The notes below the pieces were generated by a model. That model saw only the letters and a list, made by a program, of their open reading frames with translations. It did no database searches and was not told where the DNA came from. From an uncultured cyanobacterium (GTDB lineage Bacteria > Cyanobacteriota > Cyanobacteriia > Cyanobacteriales > CAWUOF01), in NCBI GenBank assembly GCA_963744145.1, contig CAVUSO010000001.1, forward strand, positions 5,696,001-5,760,000: a stretch of DNA of 64,000 nt, read 5' to 3'. Of the stretch, positions 23,075 to 32,503 are shown in pieces. The number at the start of each line of letters is the position of its first letter. Within the stretch, counting starts at the first letter, position 1. The translations under genes were made by a program, and so were the position numbers.

Positions 23075-26000
23075 TTGCTCAAGATATTACGTCAGCGACT
23101 AGAACTATTTCGACCGCAAATGATTATGTTCAGTTTTTTATTAGGTTCGCTCATTAAAATTTTCTTGATCCTGACCGACTCGATCGTCATGATGAATATT
23201 CATCAATTTTATTTATATTTGGGATTTTTGATATTACTGATTTATATAAGTTATTTATTGATGCGATTAAGACAAACAACATTAGCTCTAAAAACAGCTA
23301 ACGAAACCTTAGAATCACGAGTAATAAATCATCCTCAGCAATTGGTAACAGCTTTAGAACTAACCGAAAAAGTTAACCAAGAATTAGCAACAGAAGCAAA
23401 TTTGCTATTGACACAACGACACTTACAATTTTTACTTTCAGTGAGTCCAGCTGTTATTTATAACCGCGAAGTTGCAGATGACTCTCAGATTACATTTATC
23501 AGTGAAAATATTAGCTCAATTTATGGTTATGAAACTAGGGAATTTTTAGCAGATCCTCAGTTTTGGATAGAAAAAATTCATCCGGAAGATGTGGACCGTG
23601 TTCTGAAGGAATTTTCTAATATCTTTATCGAAAAAAATGATCACCATGAATATCGCTTTCAACACAAAAATGGAAACTACCGCTGGATATATGACGAACG
23701 GAAATTAGTTCGAGATGAAACTGGAAATCCTTTAGAAATAGTTGGTTATTGGTTAGATGTCACCGAACGTAAACAATCAGAAGAATGGCAACATTTACTC
23801 GAATCGGTAGTAATTAATGCTAATGATGGAATTATGATTGCTACAGCTAATTCAATCGATTATCCCTTAGGTCCAAAAATTGTGTATGTGAACGAAGCTT
23901 TTACCAAAATAACGGGATATTTACCTGGGGAAGTAATAGGAAAAACACCAAGAATTTTGCAAGGAGAAAAAACGAATCGTTCTGAGTTAAATAAAATTCG
24001 TCATGCTCTCATTAACTGGAAACCTGTTAAAGTTGAAGTGATTAACTATCGCAAAGATCGGTCAGAATTTTGGGTAGAACTAAATCTTTTTCCAGCAGCA
24101 GATAAAAAAGGATTTTTTACCCATTGGGTATCAATCCAGCGCAATATTACCGAACGTAAACAGGTTGAAGAAGAATTACTTAAACAAAATCTGCGATCGC
24201 AACTTTTTACAGAAATTACTTTAAAAATTCGTCAATCTTTACAACTAGAAGATATTCTGCAAACCACAGTTACAGAAATTCAAAAAATTCTGCAATCTGA
24301 CCGAGTCTTAATTTATAGATTTTGGGATGATGGTTCAGGTACAGTTGTGACCGAAGCAGTGATTCCAGGATATCCAGGTATTCTCGGACAAATTATTCAC
24401 GATCCTTGCTTTGGAGAAACACATATAGAACAGTATCGTAACGGACGTATTGCTATTGTAAATGATATAGAAACAATGCCCGTGCAAAGTTGCTATTTAG
24501 AATTCCTACGTGCTTTAGGTGTTAAAGCTAATTTAGTTGTACCCATTTTACAACAAAATACTCAATTATGGGGATTACTAATTGCCCATCACTGTAGTAG
24601 TCCTAGAAATTGGAATAACTTTGAAACTGAATTATTACAACAACTAGCTAATCAAGTAGGTATTGCTTTAGCACAAGCTAAACTTTTAGAAGAAGAAACT
24701 CGTCAGCGTGATAACTTGGAATTAGCTCGTCGTCAAGCGGAAGCAGCTTCCCAGATCAAGAGCGATTTTTTAGCTAATATGAGTCACGAAATCCGGACTC
24801 CAATGAATGCTGTTTTGGGAATGACAGGTTTACTGCTAGAAACTTCTTTAACTTCTGAACAACGGGATTTTGTAGAAACAATCCGTCTCAGTGGGGATGC
24901 TCTTTTAAGTTTAATTAATGAAATTTTAGATATATCTAAACTTGAAGCTGGACAATTAGCATTAGAAATTTTAGATTTTGATTTAGCTAGCTGTGTTGAG
25001 GAAGTGGTAGATTTATTTGCTACCAATGCTCATGTTAAAGGACTAGAGATTACTGCTTTAATCTTACCTAATGTGACGACCCAAGTTAAAGGTGATGCTG
25101 GTCGTCTCCGACAAATTCTGACTAATTTGACTGGGAATGCTGTGAAATTTACTGAGGAAGGGGAAGTTGTAGTTAAAGTAGAAGTACAAGAGCATAAAAA
25201 TAATGAAATATCTGAATTAGAACTAACTAATCAGATAATTTTGCGTTTTTCTGTCACTGATACAGGAATTGGGATTGCTTTAGCAGATCAAAATAAACTT
25301 TTTCAACCTTTTTCTCAAGTAGACCCTTCGACTGCTCGCAAATATGGTGGGACTGGATTAGGATTGGCAATATGTAAACAACTTGTCAACTTAATGGGAG
25401 GAGAAATTGGAGTTGAAAGTACGTTAGGACAAGGTTCAACCTTTTGGTTTACAGCTAGGTTAGCCAAGCAATTAAATAATAATTTTTCTCCCACTAAACG
25501 GGAGTATCCTGGTGAAAATTATCCGGTCTATTCTCCACCGGGTTTGCCAAGCAGAAGTTGTATTTTTCCGGCTAATTGTCTCAAAGATAAACGGTTATTA
25601 GTAGTGGATGATAATGATAATCATCGCCAATTAATTCGTTATCAAATTAGTCCTTTAGGAATGCTAATTGATGAAGCTGATCGGGGCGAAAAAGCCTTAG
25701 AATTTTTGGAAAACGCTGATCGCCAAAATCTAGTTTATGATGTCATTTTAATCGATCTAAAAATGCCGGAAATGGATGGAATATCCCTCGGCAAAATTAT
25801 TAAGAATAACCCGAAGTTTGCTGGGATTCCCTTGATTATCTTAGTGGCTACTAATCAAAGAGATGAAGTATTACGATGCCTGGAATTAGGTTTTGTTGCT
25901 TATTTGGTAAAACCGATTAAACAATATCGGTTATTAGATAGTTTAATTAATGTATTGGATCTACAGTTATATTTATCAGATTCCCAGGAGAATAATCTGG

Positions 26001-26473
26001 CACTGACTGCACAACAAGCTGGAGGAGGAGAACCAAGGTTTCCCCATTTATATACAAAACTGAGAATTTTACTGGCTGAAGATAATCTGGTGAATCAAAA
26101 AGTAGCAATTAGACAAATCCAAAACCTCGGCTATGATGCAGATGTAGCCGCAAATGGTGAGGAAGTTCTCCAACTTTTGGCCCAAATTCCCTATGATTTA
26201 ATTTTAATGGACTGCCAAATGCCAATTCTTGATGGTTATGAAACTACTCGGGAAATTCGTCGTCGGATGCAAGAGTCTAACCGAGCCAACGATCGCCCAG
26301 AATTACCAATTATTATTGCGCTGACTGCCAATGCGATGAAGGAAGATCAAGAAAAATGTCTCGCTGCGGGTATGGATGATTATTTAAGTAAACCAGTCCG
26401 CAAAGAAGCACTCCAAGTTATGCTATCTCACTGGAGTAATAAAATTTTTCAAGCTAAAGAGACCAACCTATGA
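23075..26473 (+). CDS. Hybrid sensor kinase PAS-PAS-GAF(CBCR-like)-HisKA-HATPase-REC-REC; start uncertain
   Basis: IHPED PAS, TPRILQG PAS, GAF with DPCF and [15 protein letters not shown], two receiver domains (DLKMP, MDCQMP). Confidence 0.92.
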
Positions 26474-26814
26474 ATACCCCCTCTCCTATCGATATAGAGC
26501 GATTGTATCAAACTTCTGGAGGTGATGCAGAATTTGAAAAAGAACTGTTGGAGCTGTTTATTGAGGATACTCAGCCTCATTTAGCTAATCTGACTAGAGC
26601 ATTAGCAGAAAAAGATTTTGACCGACTGCAAATGGAAGCTCATTACATTAAAGGTGCCAGTATCAATATGGGTGCTAATATGATGCACTCTCTAGCACTG
26701 CAACTGGAACTGGCTGCTAAACAAGCAAATTTAGACAGTGCTGGAACTTTTAATACTAAATTAGTCGCGGCTTTTGAGGCTGTGAAAAATTTTCGAGTGA
26801 CAAAAGATAATTAA
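26470..26814 (+). CDS. Hpt phosphotransfer protein
   Basis: AHYIKGAS motif; 4-bp overlap with the kinase gene. Confidence 0.9.
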
Positions 26815-27025: not shown

Positions 27026-28975
27026 ATGATTAAAAAAAGAATAAAGGTCTTAATTTTATCTTTAATCATTGGGTTCTTTGGGGTGATTGGGTGTAATACA
27101 TTGCAACAGCAAACTACAAATAACCAAACCGCATTAAACCCACCAAAGCACAATAATAATGTCGTCATATTTATTGCTGATGGTTTACGAAGAGATGCGG
27201 TTAACCAAACAGATGCTCCTACGATTTTATCAATTAGAGAAAATGGAGTTGATTATGTTAATAGTCATTCCCTATTCCCGACTTTTACAACTCCTAATGC
27301 TTCAGCGATCGCGACGGGACATTATTTAGGAGATACCGGAGATTTTAGTAATAACCTTTATATTGACTCTCCTGTTGCTCATGCTGATCATAGTGTAATC
27401 CCGTTTATTGAAAATGATCCAATTATAGCAGATATAGATGAAAAATTTCCTAGTTTGAATTTCTTAGATGAAGAAACTTTACTAGCGATCGCGCGTCAAG
27501 CTGGATATAGTACCGCTGCGATCGGTAAACTCGGTCCGACTTTAATTCAAGATGTTACCCAAGGAAATCGAGTCAATGGCAATATTCTACCACCACAAAC
27601 CATTATTATTGATGATAGTACAGGTTCTAAAGGTGGAGTACCATTAAGCGCAGAGTTAACAGCAAAATTACCAACTGTAGGTTTACCTTTAGCGACAACT
27701 CCTCGTGATCAACCTCCGGGAAATAATCAAAAACCAGGAACTACTAAAGCTAATATTGGTCAGCAACAATATTTTGCCGATGTCACCACTAAAGTAATCC
27801 TACCCTTATTTAAAGAAAGGGGAAAGCCTTTTGTCATGGTATATTGGTCTCGTGATCCAGATGGAACTCAGCACAATCATGGAGATAGTTTAAATAGTCT
27901 GACTCCTGGGATTAATGGTCCGACCTCAAAAGCTGCAATTAAAAATGCAGATAATAACCTCAAGCAAATCATTGATGCTTTAAAAGATCAAGGTTTAACA
28001 AATACTACAGATATATTTGTTACCTCAGATCATGGATTTTCAACTATCAGTAAGCAATCTATAGATGCTAAAGGTAGTAAAACTAATAGCTATGCAGCAT
28101 CTCTTTCCTACCCTAATGTTAATGCTGGATTTCTCCCAAATGGTTTTGTTGCGATTGATCTAGCTAAAGCACTAAAGCAACCTTTATTTGATCCGAATCA
28201 GGTAATTACAACTTCAGCTAAAGAGGAAATAAAGTATACTCCTATTGATCCAACTAAAGGACAATCACTTAAATCGGGAAATGCTTTAATTGGTGGTACA
28301 GGGAAAATTACCAACAACAAAACTGATGCTCAAGTAGTCGTTGCAGCTAATGGAGGTTCAGATTTAATTTATTTACCTAGTGGAGATAAAAATCTCGCTA
28401 AAAAAATAGTAGATATTTTATCCCAACAAGATTATATTAGCGGGATTTTTGCTGATGATATTTTTGGGAAACTTCCTGGAGCATTACCTTTAAGTAGTGT
28501 GGGATTAAAAGGATCAGCACTGACTCCTATCCCTGGGATTGTTGTTAACTTTAGAACTTTTTCTCTAGATCCCAAAAATCCGCTTCTGAGTGGTATCCAA
28601 ATCGCTGATACAGGATTACAACAGGGACAGGGGATGCACGGTTCATTTAGTCGGGCAGATACCTACAATAATATGGCAGCGATCGGTCCTGATTTTAAGA
28701 AAAATTTTGTTAATCAAGCTCCTGTTAGTAACGCTGATATCGCAGTTACTCTAGCAAAGGTGCTTGGGTTACCAATTTCCAAGAAAGGAAATTTACTCGG
28801 TCGAATTAGTGAGGAATCTCTAGTAGGAGGACCAAATACCGTATCATCCTCTTCCGAAACTTTAAAATCCGATCCAGCAACTAATGGTTTATCAACTATT
28901 TTAAAATATCAAAAAGTTGGTAACAACAATTATTTTGATGTGGCAGGATTTCCCGATCGAACAGTTGGGTTATAA
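27026..28975 (+). CDS. Alkaline phosphatase superfamily (nucleotide pyrophosphatase/phosphodiesterase-like) lipoprotein
   Basis: Lipobox-like VIGC, ADGLR, FPTFTTPN, DPDGTQH, TSDHG, QGMHG. Confidence 0.88.
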   Translation: MIKKRIKVLILSLIIGFFGVIGCNTLQQQTTNNQTALNPPKHNNNVVIFIADGLRRDAVNQTDAPTILSIRENGVDYVNSHSLFPTFTTPNASAIATGHYLGDTGDFSNNLYIDSPVAHADHSVIPFIENDPIIADIDEKFPSLNFLDEETLLAIARQAGYSTAAIGKLGPTLIQDVTQGNRVNGNILPPQTIIIDDSTGSKGGVPLSAELTAKLPTVGLPLATTPRDQPPGNNQKPGTTKANIGQQQYFADVTTKVILPLFKERGKPFVMVYWSRDPDGTQHNHGDSLNSLTPGINGPTSKAAIKNADNNLKQIIDALKDQGLTNTTDIFVTSDHGFSTISKQSIDAKGSKTNSYAASLSYPNVNAGFLPNGFVAIDLAKALKQPLFDPNQVITTSAKEEIKYTPIDPTKGQSLKSGNALIGGTGKITNNKTDAQVVVAANGGSDLIYLPSGDKNLAKKIVDILSQQDYISGIFADDIFGKLPGALPLSSVGLKGSALTPIPGIVVNFRTFSLDPKNPLLSGIQIADTGLQQGQGMHGSFSRADTYNNMAAIGPDFKKNFVNQAPVSNADIAVTLAKVLGLPISKKGNLLGRISEESLVGGPNTVSSSSETLKSDPATNGLSTILKYQKVGNNNYFDVAGFPDRTVGL

Positions 28976-29402: not shown

Positions 29403-29478
29403 GGTGTCTGACGGGACTCAAACCCGCTATTAACTAGCTTCACAGACTAGCGTCTCGATCGCTTCGACTTCAAACACC
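29403..29478 (-). tRNA. tRNA-His(GTG)
   Basis: G-1:C73, anticodon arm CTAGT-CTGTGAA-GCTAG; T loop TTTGAGT. Confidence 0.85.
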
Positions 29479-29556: not shown

Positions 29557-29565
29557 AAACCAAGA

Positions 29566-29639
29566 CGGGAATGGTAGGAATTGAACCCACAACATCCGAG
29601 GTAGAAACTCGGCGCTCTATCCGATTGAGCTACATTCCC
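29566..29639 (-). tRNA. tRNA-Arg(TCT)
   Basis: GGGAATG/CATTCCC, CCGAG-TTTCTAC-CTCGG. Confidence 0.9.
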
Positions 29640-29660
29640 ATCAACAATTGTGAAAATTTT

Positions 29661-29910
29661 TCAGTTCAGGCGATCGCGTAAGGGCGTGCAAGTTAGCAGA
29701 GCATTTTGCGTTTTCTCAGCTACTAGAGGGACTCCGCCGATGAGTTATTACACACTCTTTCAAGGATGGCTACTTCTAAGCCTACCTATCGGGTTCTTTG
29801 TACTCCCCATTGGCAAACGCGACCCGATATTTGATAGGGTTACTATTCCTCTCGTACTTAGTATGTAAGCTCTATCCTATTAGGGCACGCTGAGGACGCG
29901 ATCGCACTGA
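29661..29910 (-). ncRNA. Putative structured ncRNA mimicking the 23S rRNA factor-binding site (sarcin-ricin loop plus H42-H44 GTPase-associated centre)
   Basis: AGUACGAGAGGA hairpin at 29841-29863; CCGAUAGGUAGGCUUAGAAGUAGCCAUCCUUGAAAGAGUGUGUAAUAACUCAUCGG at 29737-29792; terminal stem GCGAUCGCGU..GCGUGC / GCACGC..ACGCGAUCGC. Confidence 0.8.
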
Positions 29911-29967
29911 TTACCAAACATGATCAAACGAATTTAACACACCTCCTTAAATCAAATTCAATTCACA

Positions 29968-30039
<72 letters not shown>

Positions 30040-30045
30040 TTTAAA

Positions 30046-30116
30046 AGCGGATAACGAGAGTCGAACTCGTACCTAGAATTTGGAAGAATCAGATGCTACC
30101 GCTACACCATATCCGC
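30046..30116 (-). tRNA. tRNA-Gly(TCC), anticodon stem with two U-U mismatches
   Basis: GCGGATA/TATCCGC, U73, TGATT-CTTCCAA-ATTCT. Confidence 0.78.
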
Positions 30117-30139: not shown

Positions 30140-30985
30140 TTATTTATCTGGCCGAAATCGCCGATCGAACTCTGTAAATATCTTTCTTTCTTCGCTTAGA
30201 TCCAGAACTGAAAATAGGATGCTTTTGAATCTTCCCCAAAACTGTCCTTTTGTTAATAAAAAATCCGCAAACATTTGAGCGACCATTGCCGGATCGTTTC
30301 TGAATACTCCACATCCCCAAGCTCCTAAAACTAAAGCATCACAATGATGGTAAGCAGCTAAACTTAACAACTTAGCACCGCGAACATAGAGAACTTCGCG
30401 AATTTTTCCTTGAGCCGGAGATGGTCTTTTTCTAATTTCACCAGCGTTAGGAGCTGGACTAGTGAAAAAATCCACTTGATGGGGGATTGACAGTAAAGTT
30501 CCATCATCTTTGCGAAAAATTGGACAACTTGGTGAATGAATAATATGATCGGAATATAAAAGTGAGGAAGTAGACCGATGAAAATCATAATATTTAGGAC
30601 ATTTCAATAGACTTTGGTAAAGTCCAGAACTACGTGCTAAACTCTCTTCTTGTGCTTGAGCACCTCTCATAAATCCACCACCAGGGTTTTTAGCAGAAGC
30701 AAAATTGAGAACACCAATTTTGGCAAATTTTTGAGTTTTCGTCATCATTTCTGCTCCGCTCAATGTCGTCTCATTCCTGATGGTAAATTCAGTATTAGTG
30801 AAGGTGGCAGCACTAGCGAGAACTTCGGTTTGGATTTGCTCAAGATCAGCAGGATCGTAACATTTTGTTTGAGCGACACAGAATGCTAAATCTGGCGCTA
30901 TATCCACCCGTTCGCTTTGAGGGGATTGGTAATAACCTGCTGCTAGTATATTGAGAGTATCTTGCGCGATCGCAACTCGCTTCAT
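30140..30985 (-). CDS. TIGR02452/DUF2263 bacterial-type poly(ADP-ribose) glycohydrolase (PARG-like macrodomain)
   Basis: LNFASAKNPGGGF..GAQAQEESLARSS, VLGAWGCGVFRN; start taken at ATG 30985 because the longer ORF overlaps tRNA-Thr. Confidence 0.9.
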   Translation of the reverse strand: MKRVAIAQDTLNILAAGYYQSPQSERVDIAPDLAFCVAQTKCYDPADLEQIQTEVLASAATFTNTEFTIRNETTLSGAEMMTKTQKFAKIGVLNFASAKNPGGGFMRGAQAQEESLARSSGLYQSLLKCPKYYDFHRSTSSLLYSDHIIHSPSCPIFRKDDGTLLSIPHQVDFFTSPAPNAGEIRKRPSPAQGKIREVLYVRGAKLLSLAAYHHCDALVLGAWGCGVFRNDPAMVAQMFADFLLTKGQFWGRFKSILFSVLDLSEERKIFTEFDRRFRPDK

Positions 30986-31027
30986 GTGTTTAAAACTCCT
31001 GATACATATCTCCTTTTTTAAAGTCCA

Positions 31028-31099
31028 AGCAGGAGGCGAGATTTGAACTCGCATAGGCAGTTTACAAGACTGCTGTGTTGCCATTGACACCACACCTGC
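31028..31099 (-). tRNA. tRNA-Thr(TGT)
   Basis: GCAGGTG/CTCCTGC (one mismatch), GCAGT-CTTGTAA-ACTGC. Confidence 0.85.
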
Positions 31100-31819: not shown

Positions 31820-31848
31820 ATACTACAATCATACTACAAAATTGTCAA
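31820..31848 (-). promoter_or_regulatory. Sigma70 promoter of the tRNA operon overlapped by two ATACTACA operator-like boxes
   Basis: TTGACA-N17-TAGTAT on minus strand; ATACTACA at 31820-31827 and 31831-31838. Confidence 0.8.
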
Positions 31849-32117: not shown

Positions 32118-32135
32118 ATACTACACTTGTATTAT
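32118..32135 (+). promoter_or_regulatory. Putative autoregulatory operator upstream of the TrcR-like gene
   Basis: ATACTACA-CT-TGTATTAT imperfect inverted repeat using the same half-site as the tRNA promoter. Confidence 0.7.
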
Positions 32136-32167: not shown

Positions 32168-32503
32168 ATGTATACCATTAATCGCACCTCAACCACGGAA
32201 ATGGAAGTAACTAGCATCAGACTGGAAAGAGAACTGAAGGAAAATCTCAAGGACATCGCAGGTGGTCAAGGTTATCAGGCTCTAATTCGAGATATTCTCT
32301 GGAACTATGTACAACAGAAATCGGGCGACTATCGACCTCAATTTTCCCGGACCGATATCCGGGCCAGTATAGCGGCTACAGCCCAACGAGAGGAGCATTG
32401 CGTTCTGACAGGGCAGTTAATTCGACCACAAGAACCGATGTTTTTAGGATTGACGATCAATGGCGATATGGTTCCCTTAAGTGTCAAAAGTTTAGTTGGT
32501 TAG
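32168..32503 (+). CDS. trcR: Ribbon-helix-helix transcriptional repressor, TrcR-like
   Basis: MEVTSIRLERELK..GYQALIRDILWNYVQQK; AAGGAG RBS; family recognised from memory, supported by adjacency to the tRNA array and shared boxes. Confidence 0.75.
   Translation: MYTINRTSTTEMEVTSIRLERELKENLKDIAGGQGYQALIRDILWNYVQQKSGDYRPQFSRTDIRASIAATAQREEHCVLTGQLIRPQEPMFLGLTINGDMVPLSVKSLVG

Follow-up and report, generated by a model that had tools for sequence, protein, structure and literature searches.

A segment on the minus strand of a 64,000-nt stretch of DNA from an uncultured cyanobacterium (GTDB Cyanobacteriales, CAWUOF01; NCBI GenBank assembly GCA_963744145.1, contig CAVUSO010000001.1, forward-strand positions 5,696,001–5,760,000; hereafter the window, numbered from its first letter) is best explained, at about even confidence, as the gene for a stable non-coding RNA of ~210–245 nt from a large cyanobacterial family. 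On one small scaffold the predicted RNA would present both of the ribosomal RNA (rRNA) elements that are touched by the translational GTPases and the L10/L11/L12 stalk, namely the sarcin-ricin loop (SRL; helix H95 of 23S rRNA) and the GTPase-associated centre (GAC; H42–H44), and it is referred to here as the SRL-GAC RNA. In the predicted fold, the two ends of the molecule pair into a long stem (P0/P1/P2) that leads to a junction with three arms, namely the SRL hairpin, a variable hairpin P3, and a P4/P5 arm capped by the H42-H43-H44 replica.

All parts of the element lie on the minus strand of the window, and each string and coordinate given in an earlier reading of the letters alone (the original prediction) was present there. 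The whole RNA, delimited by the comparative fold and by homologues, extends from the closing stem P0 to P0′ (29666–29910), with a conserved core of 207 nt in the comparative fold from P1 to P1′ (29890–29684). The SRL replica (29841–29863) is a 5-bp stem UACUA/UAGUA around AGUACGAGAGGA (29858–29847), reading UACUA-AGUACGAGAGGA-AUAGUA in the window (29863–29841); the 12-nt SRL sequence, closed by this helix, occurs only once in the 64 kb, even at one mismatch (shuffle mean, 0.16). The second, rRNA-like block (29808–29726) contains the GAC replica (29737–29792; H43 loop GGCUUAGAAGUAGCC, H44 loop GUGUAAUAAC), which aligned without gaps, as had been claimed, to positions 1093–1148 of the Rfam model LSU_rRNA_bacteria (29792–29737; 45.6 bits, E = 1.3e-12). 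This local 56-nt large subunit (LSU) rRNA match was the sole Rfam match of the element, and the original prediction had likewise foreseen local LSU matches only; other matches at E ≤ 10 around the element (29560–30050) were tRNAs and chance matches antisense to tRNAs. The hairpin that separates the SRL arm from the GAC arm, P3 (29822–29839), is variable. The base of the GAC arm is P4 (5′ strand GCGUU, 29816–29820; partner 29708–29712), followed by P5, of which the 5′ strand (29800–29807) resembles the lower 5′ strand of 23S H42 (GGGAGUGC) and pairs irregularly with 29725–29732, while a conserved single-stranded joiner of nearly invariant columns (consensus UAGUAACUGAGAA, 29713–29724) leads from P5′ to P4′. 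Towards the ends, P2 (5′ strand UAGAGC, 29869–29874) pairs with 29697–29702 and P1 (GCGUGC, 29885–29890) with GCACGC (29684–29689). The tRNA genes said to flank the element were both confirmed and both lie on its own strand, tRNA-Val(UAC) directly upstream (29968–30039, 57 nt ahead of P0) and tRNA-Arg(UCU) directly downstream (29564–29640, 25 nt past P0′).

The two modules were claimed to stand in the opposite order to that of 23S rRNA, and they do. SRL precedes GAC with a spacing of 65 nt, the reverse of the order in real cyanobacterial 23S rRNA: in the 23S genes of L004 and L005 the SRL lies 1,530 and 1,467 nt downstream of the GAC. With the module order reversed and no rRNA gene in the window at the Rfam gathering score, collinearity of the segment with a 23S gene is excluded.

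Relatives were collected with a pattern scan of species-representative genomes (SRL core, 45–75 nt of any sequence, H43 loop), which returned at least 120 stretches, and with a BLAST search against plasmids in which no motif was demanded. The latter yielded two copies, on Kovacikia minuta pA (79% identity) and Dolichospermum flos-aquae pAfl69 (78%), both with the same SRL-then-GAC order. Family counts given below out of 123 refer to the pattern-scan matches listed, the plasmid copies and the window copy, at least 123 elements in all, of which no two are identical and which share 57–79% identity with the window copy. Nearly all of the matches listed are from cyanobacteria (Nostocales, Oscillatoriales, Leptolyngbyales and others), from complete genomes and plasmids as well, and among them the closest relatives of the window copy are from Oscillatoria and Microcoleus. 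Four matches (L020, L057, L054 and L093) have other labels (one Acidobacteriota metagenome-assembled genome, one Actinomycetota metagenome-assembled genome and two ‘uncultured bacterium’) and are probably mis-binned cyanobacterial contigs. The Actinomycetota contig (L057) carries HIP1, a palindrome discussed below. The remaining plasmid matches and all five phage matches to the window RNA were short and covered the GAC block only. Plasmid matches L003–L005 were rejected as family members, being genuine plasmid-borne 23S genes, as were the Paenibacillus ‘plasmid’ matches, which contain a complete rrn operon.

The fold was analysed on 74 representatives with less than 93% mutual identity. RNAalifold predicted a structure of 46 pairs, in which compensatory changes occurred at 26, and this fold plus the SRL stem and the Rfam H42–44 pairs formed a 48-pair set in which 96.3% of cells hold standard pairs, compared to 34–50% when the 3′ partners were slid by 1–3 columns. 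Changes on both sides were observed in 28 of the 48 pairs (6–13 in the slid controls), and none of 500 shuffles matched the observed pairing and covariation values. Most of the covariation is held by P1, P2, P3 and P4, the helices with no 23S counterpart: P1 is paired in 95.7% of cells with both-side changes in 4 of 6 pairs, P2 covaries strongly (alignment columns 68–70 with 265–267), and both-side changes occur in all 6 pairs of P3 and in 4 of the 5 pairs of P4. The H42–44 helices of the GAC replica co-vary as well, and the SRL stem keeps its register with a length of 3 to 6 pairs across the family. An origin as functionless rRNA debris, as a pseudogene or through chimeric assembly would account for the local rRNA likeness of the segment and the degenerate partial copies at four loci, but not for the at least 123 distinct copies from independent assemblies with one shared non-rRNA order, the compensatory changes in helices without a 23S counterpart and the conserved promoter boxes, and this explanation is refuted. 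With both modules kept together, and with covariation, in at least 123 copies, the distinct sequences and the covarying non-23S helices bear out the proposal of a purpose-built, conserved RNA.

A long terminal stem had also been proposed. It is present (29910–29895/29679–29666 and 29890–29885/29689–29684), with the correction that part of it is HIP1, a palindrome common in cyanobacteria. The 5′ strand of P0 (29895–29910; partner 29666–29679) holds the HIP1 palindrome GCGAUCGC and P0′ (29666–29679) also holds HIP1, such that 8 bp at the very outside of the stem come from a self-complementary sequence (GCGATCGC) present on both strands of P0. The HIP1 part is by itself no evidence for pairing; the stem beyond HIP1 co-varies in relatives. 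The P0 arms of the window form a duplex of −24.4 kcal/mol. Within the family, array-type copies have a long P0, whereas that of Nostoc-type copies is short and rich in A and U. Across 114 elements, cognate arms had a mean of −8.0 kcal/mol compared to −5.2 kcal/mol for non-cognate arms, and 27% of cognate versus 6% of non-cognate arms were at or below −10 kcal/mol.

The rRNA likeness is more extensive in relatives than in the window copy, with LSU matches of 51–59 bits that reach the Rfam gathering score and, in some, span model positions 1077–1160, which is all of H42; similarity to real cyanobacterial 23S rRNA continues into the H42 5′ strand (GGGAGUGC). For the tertiary contacts of the GAC, we take the relevant positions to be the base triple 1072/(1092–1099) together with U1060/A1088 and A1067/A1095, with the numbering and the triple assumed. 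At the equivalents of the triple, 122 elements had U/U-A (n = 112), C/C-G (n = 3), C/U-A (n = 3) or U/U-G (n = 4). All three C-G pairs are accompanied by C at the third position of the triple, and though the numbers are small, this co-switch is the isosteric change expected if the GAC tertiary fold is retained. The gap-free alignment, the covarying helices and the kept triple equivalents together point to the GAC fold. A few copies have lost parts of the scaffold. Three extra copies found with a hidden Markov model (L016 9616–9796, minus strand; L034 6254–6423, plus strand; L011 6249–6421, plus strand) lack P4′, P2′ and P1′ and have a common alternative 3′ end, which is shared by a second copy in L046 that still fits the scan pattern. 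The SRLs of L016, L034 and L011 are mutated (e.g., AAUACGAGAGG, AGUACGAGAGA), as are their H43 loops, and loop mutations beside stem loss give the appearance of decay under relaxed selection. In the truncated copies, the upstream boxes are still recognisable.

Those boxes connect the RNA to a described stress regulon. Santamaria-Gomez et al. showed that the long tRNA arrays of cyanobacteria are silent until translation inhibitors induce them, a response that depends on tandem direct repeats covering the −10 box and start site (PMC8421152). Wang et al. identified the repressor as TrcR and footprinted it at two promoters, that of the array, on TGTAGTAT across the TAGTAT −10 box, and that of trcR itself, on the motif ATACTACACTTGTATTAC; the regulon given there includes the trn array, rtcB, rsgA, a rimK operon and genes for an HNH endonuclease and a TIGR02452 (PARG-family) protein, the last among the most de-repressed in an Anabaena trcR mutant (PMC10272220, Table 1). 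Among the SRL-GAC elements, 65/123 have an exact TGTAGTAT in the 110 nt ahead of the SRL, with a peak at −60, and in 61/123 a second box (TGTAnTAn) lies 10 nt downstream of the first. In the window, the tRNA-array promoter (TTGACA-17 nt-TAGTAT, 31820–31848, minus strand) has two tandem TGTAGTAT boxes (31838–31831 and 31827–31820) that match the published operator (PMC10272220). No terminator-like site was found on the minus strand between 31820 and 29300. The RNA is placed in the TrcR translational-stress regulon because of these operator boxes (PMC10272220).

Divergent from the array, a 111-aa ribbon-helix-helix regulator (32168–32503, plus strand; Arc-like repressor, E = 0.002) is a probable TrcR orthologue. 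A sequence 50 nt ahead of this open reading frame (ORF), ATACTACACTTGTATTAT (32118–32135), is identical at 17 of 18 bases to the published trcR auto-operator (PMC10272220) and lies 300 nt from the array promoter on the opposite strand. The ORF has 1,446 relatives, 75–84% identical across cyanobacteria and named ribbon-helix-helix or CopG/Arc/MetJ, and is probably trcR itself, with the window RNA a probable passenger of a TrcR-controlled array. A second copy of the ORF, 94% identical, was present in the protein collection. Since the RNA lies between tRNAs within what appears to be one transcription unit, its release by tRNA processing, which the original prediction had suggested, is plausible.

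Gene neighbourhoods were compared for 82 loci with usable flanks, the basis of all neighbour counts, and the conserved neighbours are all co-directional with the RNA. At about 60 loci, mostly from the Nostocales (setting A), the RNA is downstream of a gene for a 477–515-aa Ro60-like protein and upstream of a 277-aa/ThiF gene pair. The order in this setting is a 241-aa protein, an L7/L12 paralogue, the Ro60-like protein, a gap of ~0.8–1 kb, the RNA, the 277-aa protein, which begins about 50–190 nt past the RNA, and a 212-aa ThiF-family protein; the Ro60-like gene was found at 62 loci, the 277-aa gene at 59, the ThiF-like gene at 54, the 241-aa gene at 35 and the L7/L12 paralogue at 15. At 18 loci, including the window (setting B), the flanks contain 10–41 tRNA genes, and at 16 of these loci the RNA occupies a conserved slot among the tRNAs (Gly-Val-(Arg)-RNA-(Arg)-Ala-His-Ser). 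L051 and L075 combine a tRNA array with the setting-A operon. The proposed embedding in a tRNA operon holds in the window but does not define the family, as it applies to 18/82 loci and most copies have their own promoter near the Ro60-like, 277-aa and ThiF genes.

The 477–515-aa protein is called Ro60-like with moderate confidence. It has a weak vWA match in its C-terminal half and an all-helical N-terminal region of 300 residues, and all eleven fold matches in PDB at E ≤ 0.001 were full-length Ro60/Rsr/TROVE proteins (best E = 4e-6); in a viral library the named top fold matches were Ro-like and TROVE proteins. At the level of sequence, there was no PDB match by profile, a vWA_Ro60 match was obtained for a single member out of 13 (E = 0.05), and the best 120 of 2,804 relatives were named only vWA or hypothetical.

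These neighbours allow the RNA to be read as a Y RNA in the strict sense, with a terminal stem that would bind the Ro60-like protein and an rRNA-like module, in place of the tRNA-like module of YrlA, that would serve as tether or gate and steer the Ro60 particle towards targets such as ribosomal proteins or 23S rRNA that has been damaged. The same-strand Ro60-like gene at 62/82 loci, with its fold matches to Rsr/Ro60, would fit such a partnership, and the architecture resembles that of the YrlA/Yrn1 Y RNAs bound by Ro60/Rsr, where a long stem made by the two ends of the molecule carries a domain that imitates an RNA of the translation apparatus. A Ro60-type gene nearby and an RNA-repair context induced by damage to translation would also be common to both (PMC4201824). 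Chen et al. (2014) further note ‘relatively few YrlA RNAs’ in cyanobacteria, so that a partner RNA may be missing there (PMC4201824); Y RNAs are described from RNA-repair operons too (PMC7790460). Against this, the Ro60 recognition motif given in the text of PMC4201824 (GNCGAA(N)G / GGUCCGA) was found 5′ of the SRL in 0/123 elements and elsewhere in 5/123, there was no Rfam Y_RNA or YrlA match at E ≤ 10 (29560–30050), and the 207-nt core is about twice the size of a Y RNA (80–130 nt), with a module copied from rRNA (SRL + H42–44) where theirs resembles tRNA. In addition, the RNA is mostly 0.8–1 kb from the Ro60-like gene with a promoter of its own, the window has no Ro60-like gene, and more conventional candidates exist in the same operons (the tRNA-like genes, the tmRNA-end-like elements and the weak YrlA-like elements described below). 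A strict Y RNA is judged unlikely on this evidence.

The proximity of the 277-aa gene raises a different option, that the RNA is a cis-acting leader of the 277-aa/ThiF operon, bound by a stalk protein in a feedback loop like that of the rRNA-mimicking ribosomal protein (r-protein) leaders. Mimicry of rRNA by such leaders is established, the 277-aa gene begins within about 50–190 nt of the RNA in operon-type loci, and no terminator-like site follows the RNA in L065. At 16 loci, including the window, however, the RNA is between tRNAs with no 277-aa/ThiF operon downstream, and these array-type loci make a leader that acts only in cis unlikely. Known leaders also fall far short of an RNA with so long a closing stem, an SRL and a complete tertiary fold, and the downstream genes are not r-protein genes, the L7/L12 paralogue being upstream where it is present; overall, a leader function seems very improbable. 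The 277-aa protein itself had no match in Pfam, NCBIfam, PADLOC, PHROGs or the Atlas, a best PDB profile match of E = 0.85, and an AlphaFold model with a predicted local distance difference test (pLDDT) score of 56.

The genes around array-type copies bear on a further alternative. A microbial-type PARG (ADP-ribose glycohydrolase family) is upstream of the RNA at 5/82 loci, including the window, where its ORF is within the array (30140–31093, minus strand), and a NADAR protein is downstream at 7/82, directly after the RNA in 5. Other accessory genes of this setting are an RNA ligase with a tRNA-binding domain (5/82), endonuclease V (6/82), a phosphodiesterase (6/82) of the type I family also present beside the window array, RNase T, a CCA-adding-like nucleotidyltransferase and DUF4291. 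The RNA might be a decoy or sponge for aggressors (toxins that cleave or depurinate the SRL, ADP-ribosyltransferases that modify the GAC, and stoichiometric GAC-binding antibiotics of thiopeptide type) that would spare the ribosomes, with other RNA damage left to the repair enzymes and spare tRNAs induced alongside it. SRL-cleaving VapC toxins and a GAC-directed ADP-ribosyltransferase do exist, and the SRL loop and GAC loop residues of the element are intact, which we take to include all identity elements needed by ribotoxins and thiopeptides. Its position in tRNA arrays and RNA-repair islands (with RNA ligase, endonuclease V, RNase T and CCA-adding-like enzyme), with ADP-ribose-removing enzymes adjoining, would suit such a role, and phage tRNA clusters, thought to counter host attack on translation, have a GAC mimic of their own. 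We presume TIGR02452 to be the same family as Pfam PARG_cat_microb, that is, the family of the window PARG. The Anabaena TrcR regulon includes a TIGR02452 gene (PMC10272220), and antibiotics that act on translation switch the regulon on (PMC8421152, PMC10272220). The decoy is weakened by the fact that a substrate decoy cannot titrate catalytic toxins unless the complex is a dead end, by the lack of any toxin gene seen linked to the RNA, and by what it leaves unexplained, namely the L7/L12 paralogue (15/82) and the commonest neighbours (Ro60-like, ThiF-like and 277-aa). Thiopeptides, moreover, need uL11 for tight binding. A decoy for aggressors is possible, if somewhat unlikely.

From the conserved fold, the faithful rRNA copies, the TrcR operators and the constant neighbours, we infer a mimic that acts in trans at times of stress. 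In this preferred reading, which we place at the midpoint of our confidence, the SRL-GAC RNA would be a stress-induced mimic of the factor-docking site that competes with the 50S subunit for the ligands of SRL and GAC. Its synthesis would follow the lifting of TrcR repression under translational stress, in the window as part of the long tRNA-array transcript, from which it would be cut out with the tRNAs, and in most other genomes from its own TrcR-type promoter. In trans the RNA would offer a ribosome-like docking surface in competition with 50S subunits, with uL11, uL10, L7/L12 (including the adjoining paralogue) and the translational GTPases, or else enzymes attacking SRL/GAC, as the likeliest ligands, and it could be the core of a particle within the Ro60-like/RNA-repair/spare-tRNA response. 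The ligand classes, which are not mutually exclusive, would rank with the cell’s own stalk proteins and GTPases first, aggressors second and the Ro60-like protein third. The first rank is given to stalk proteins and GTPases because they would explain the H42 (uL10) site, the kept tertiary fold and the L7/L12 paralogue. L7/L12 has factor recruitment as its only known job, and isolated SRL and GAC oligonucleotides fold and bind EF-G/IF2, uL11, thiostrepton and ribotoxins. Binding of isolated SRL RNA to EF-G and IF2 is reported (PMC3496166).

The L7/L12 paralogue, at 106.8 bits, passed the cut-off of 84.4 set for the L12 equivalog in NCBIfam and retains the dimerisation domain and the C-terminal motif KKIALLKVIRTVTGLGLKEAKDFV, with a charged linker in place of the hinge. 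This motif is presumably the factor-binding region of the L12 C-terminal domain. The paralogue is outside any ribosomal protein operon (L065 5096–5476 and 14 other loci). The 241-aa protein had no family or PDB match, and its Atlas matches were unnamed clusters from bacteria and phages only; a uL10-like identity was considered for it and rejected, lacking support from the family, PDB and Atlas searches.

Several points weigh against the preferred reading of a trans-acting mimic. The single-sequence minimum free energy (MFE) fold of the window RNA (−82.3 kcal/mol; z = −3.5 versus shuffles) misses both the SRL and GAC hairpins and was set aside for the comparative fold, though thermodynamics favours it by ~25 kcal/mol (−84.7 vs −59.8 kcal/mol). 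This MFE fold pairs the near-invariant UACAUAC 5′ of the SRL with the near-invariant GUGUGUA of H44 (window 29859–29865 with 29751–29757), a helix incompatible with both mimic modules. It could form in 88% of cells and does not covary (447/500 shuffles equal it), and may be coincidental or belong to an inactive alternative conformer. The search pattern itself is responsible for part of the apparent conservation, as the invariance of the SRL and H43 loop in the 121 scan-derived copies is imposed by the scan and not countable as conservation; both motifs are nonetheless present in the two BLAST-derived plasmid copies (L001, L002), which are independent of the pattern. The Ro60-like, 277-aa and ThiF genes are absent from the 64-kb window, and the 241-aa and L7/L12-paralogue genes are absent within 10 kb either side of its RNA, the part that was searched for these two. 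The Ro60-like call relies on a mediocre model (pLDDT 60; template modelling (TM) score about 0.3), and the protein had no TROVE Pfam match even at E ≤ 10. There is no mention of an rRNA-like RNA in the main text of either the TrcR or the tRNA-array paper (PMC10272220, PMC8421152), and the published TrcR transcriptome, as described in that main text, explicitly excluded long non-coding RNAs (PMC10272220). Transcription, processing and the binding of partners are predictions for every member of the family, as is a competitive effect, be it buffering or decoy, and a substrate-like decoy would be poor against catalytic enzymes unless it bound very tightly or was very abundant.

The original prediction knew of no description of such an RNA, and full-text literature searches on SRL/GAC mimics, Y RNAs, tRNA arrays and TrcR, with two key reviews outside their coverage, likewise returned none; Rfam 15 contains no family model for it. 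Because the defining features of a genuine rRNA, a Y RNA and an r-protein leader were not found, the SRL-GAC RNA would appear to be a new class working by a known principle, molecular mimicry. Like the r-protein leaders (e.g., the L10 leader), it is a natural RNA that copies a protein-binding site of rRNA, but those are cis-acting 5′ untranslated regions that copy one protein site, whereas here the element is free-standing between tRNAs and joins two distant centres with a whole tertiary fold. The same two elements were used as synthetic SRL and 58-nt GAC oligoribonucleotides (‘ribosome in pieces’), laboratory constructs that were studied apart, in contrast to the natural fusion with a conserved scaffold and fixed geometry seen here. 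The 6S RNA is likewise a structural decoy for the ligand of a large machine, and phage T4 has small stable RNAs processed from a tRNA cluster, but with neither is there sequence or structural kinship, and the targets are others. As a passenger of an array, the window copy has the operator and similar accessory genes in common with the TrcR-controlled trn operon and the L-arrays, the published descriptions of which list, in their main texts, tRNAs and protein genes only (PMC8421152, PMC10272220). If expressed and folded as predicted, the RNA would be, to judge from these searches, the first natural off-ribosome rebuild of the translational-GTPase docking site, and at 210 nt a natural model for the cooperation of SRL and stalk base, so far probed with separate synthetic fragments. 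It would also add an RNA component to the TrcR/tRNA-array response to translation inhibitors and may provide the missing RNA partner of the cyanobacterial Ro60-like proteins.

A GAC-only mimic was found in phages. The match to the window RNA in Pseudomonas phage pf16 is 35 nt long and falls within the phage tRNA cluster, in the spacer of 253 nt that separates tRNA-Asn from tRNA-Pro (L126 2442–2694), and a BLAST search with this spacer matched fifteen phage records. The mimic is between tRNA-Trp and tRNA-Arg in Pseudomonas phage UNO-G1W1, just 5′ of tRNA-Met in Pseudomonas phage Astolliot and Aeromonas phage 4_4572, and directly after a 2′-5′ RNA ligase gene in Xanthomonas phage XacN1; Cronobacter phage GAP32 is also in the aligned set of six (other coordinates: L127 593–805, L128 ~600–781, L129 ~600–908, L130 581–941, L131 578–870). 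Further matches were to Pseudomonas phage Milchi, Paenibacillus phage Pd_22F, two Staphylococcus records and two Acinetobacter records, the last annotated as 23S rRNA. In the six aligned elements the 5′ end holds an H43 replica with the UUUAAAGAGUG linker, and 100–250 nt of variable sequence separate it from an H44 replica (UUUGGCGUARYAGCNCACC); none contains an exact SRL, and against Rfam the phage element has a weak LSU match only (25 bits). This phage family appears to be separate from, and independent of, the cyanobacterial SRL-GAC RNA. GAC mimicry within tRNA clusters is thus not confined to cyanobacteria, which suggests that mimicry of rRNA centres may be a wider strategy in translation conflicts.

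Setting-A operons contain further small RNA-like elements. Two tRNA-like genes are upstream of the Ro60-like gene (L042 3160–3233 and 4778–4850; L065 3184–3258 and 4912–4986). Of 39 genes at the distal position, 28 have the amber anticodon CUA, with CUU, UAG, UUA or others elsewhere, and the proximal one, at the orthologous position, has a highly variable anticodon (GAA, n = 11; UGA, n = 11; UAA, n = 4; UUU, n = 3; UCA, n = 1; and others), which suggests that these are tRNA look-alikes and not ordinary decoders. About 70–120 nt upstream of the CUA tRNA-like gene are 84-nt elements (L007 13081–13164, minus strand; L033 2611–2694, plus strand; L029 15184–15267, minus strand; L065 3028–3111, plus strand) that match only the two ends of the Rfam transfer-messenger RNA (tmRNA) model, the tRNA-like domain, three at 39–46.6 bits (gathering score 47) and the L065 copy at 26.5 bits. 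Weak YrlA matches were observed in L065 (3897–4009, E = 0.37) and L033 (3417–3473, E = 0.99), and a long hairpin-like sequence with several weak unrelated Rfam matches lies between the L7/L12 paralogue and the Ro60-like gene of L065 (5467–5601, plus strand).

A bolder version of the factor-site mimic, tentative and on the unlikely side, would have the SRL-GAC RNA, uL11, uL10 and the L7/L12 paralogue form a free-standing particle that docks, and perhaps triggers, GTPases off the ribosome. Cyanobacteria, and in GAC-only form some large phages, might then make a ‘mini factor-binding site’, and the RNA with the tRNA-like and tmRNA-end-like RNAs could amount to a mock A-site/factor-site kit under TrcR, a bait, buffer or sensor for whatever attacks or stalls translation.

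In the window, a tRNA-like gene that was not reported by ARAGORN lies between tRNA-Ala and tRNA-Ser of the array (29403–29477, minus strand; Rfam, 41.3 bits). The array is adjoined by genes for a hybrid histidine kinase (PAS/GAF) with an Hpt protein and for a type I phosphodiesterase (23075–26814 and 27026–28975, both on the plus strand).

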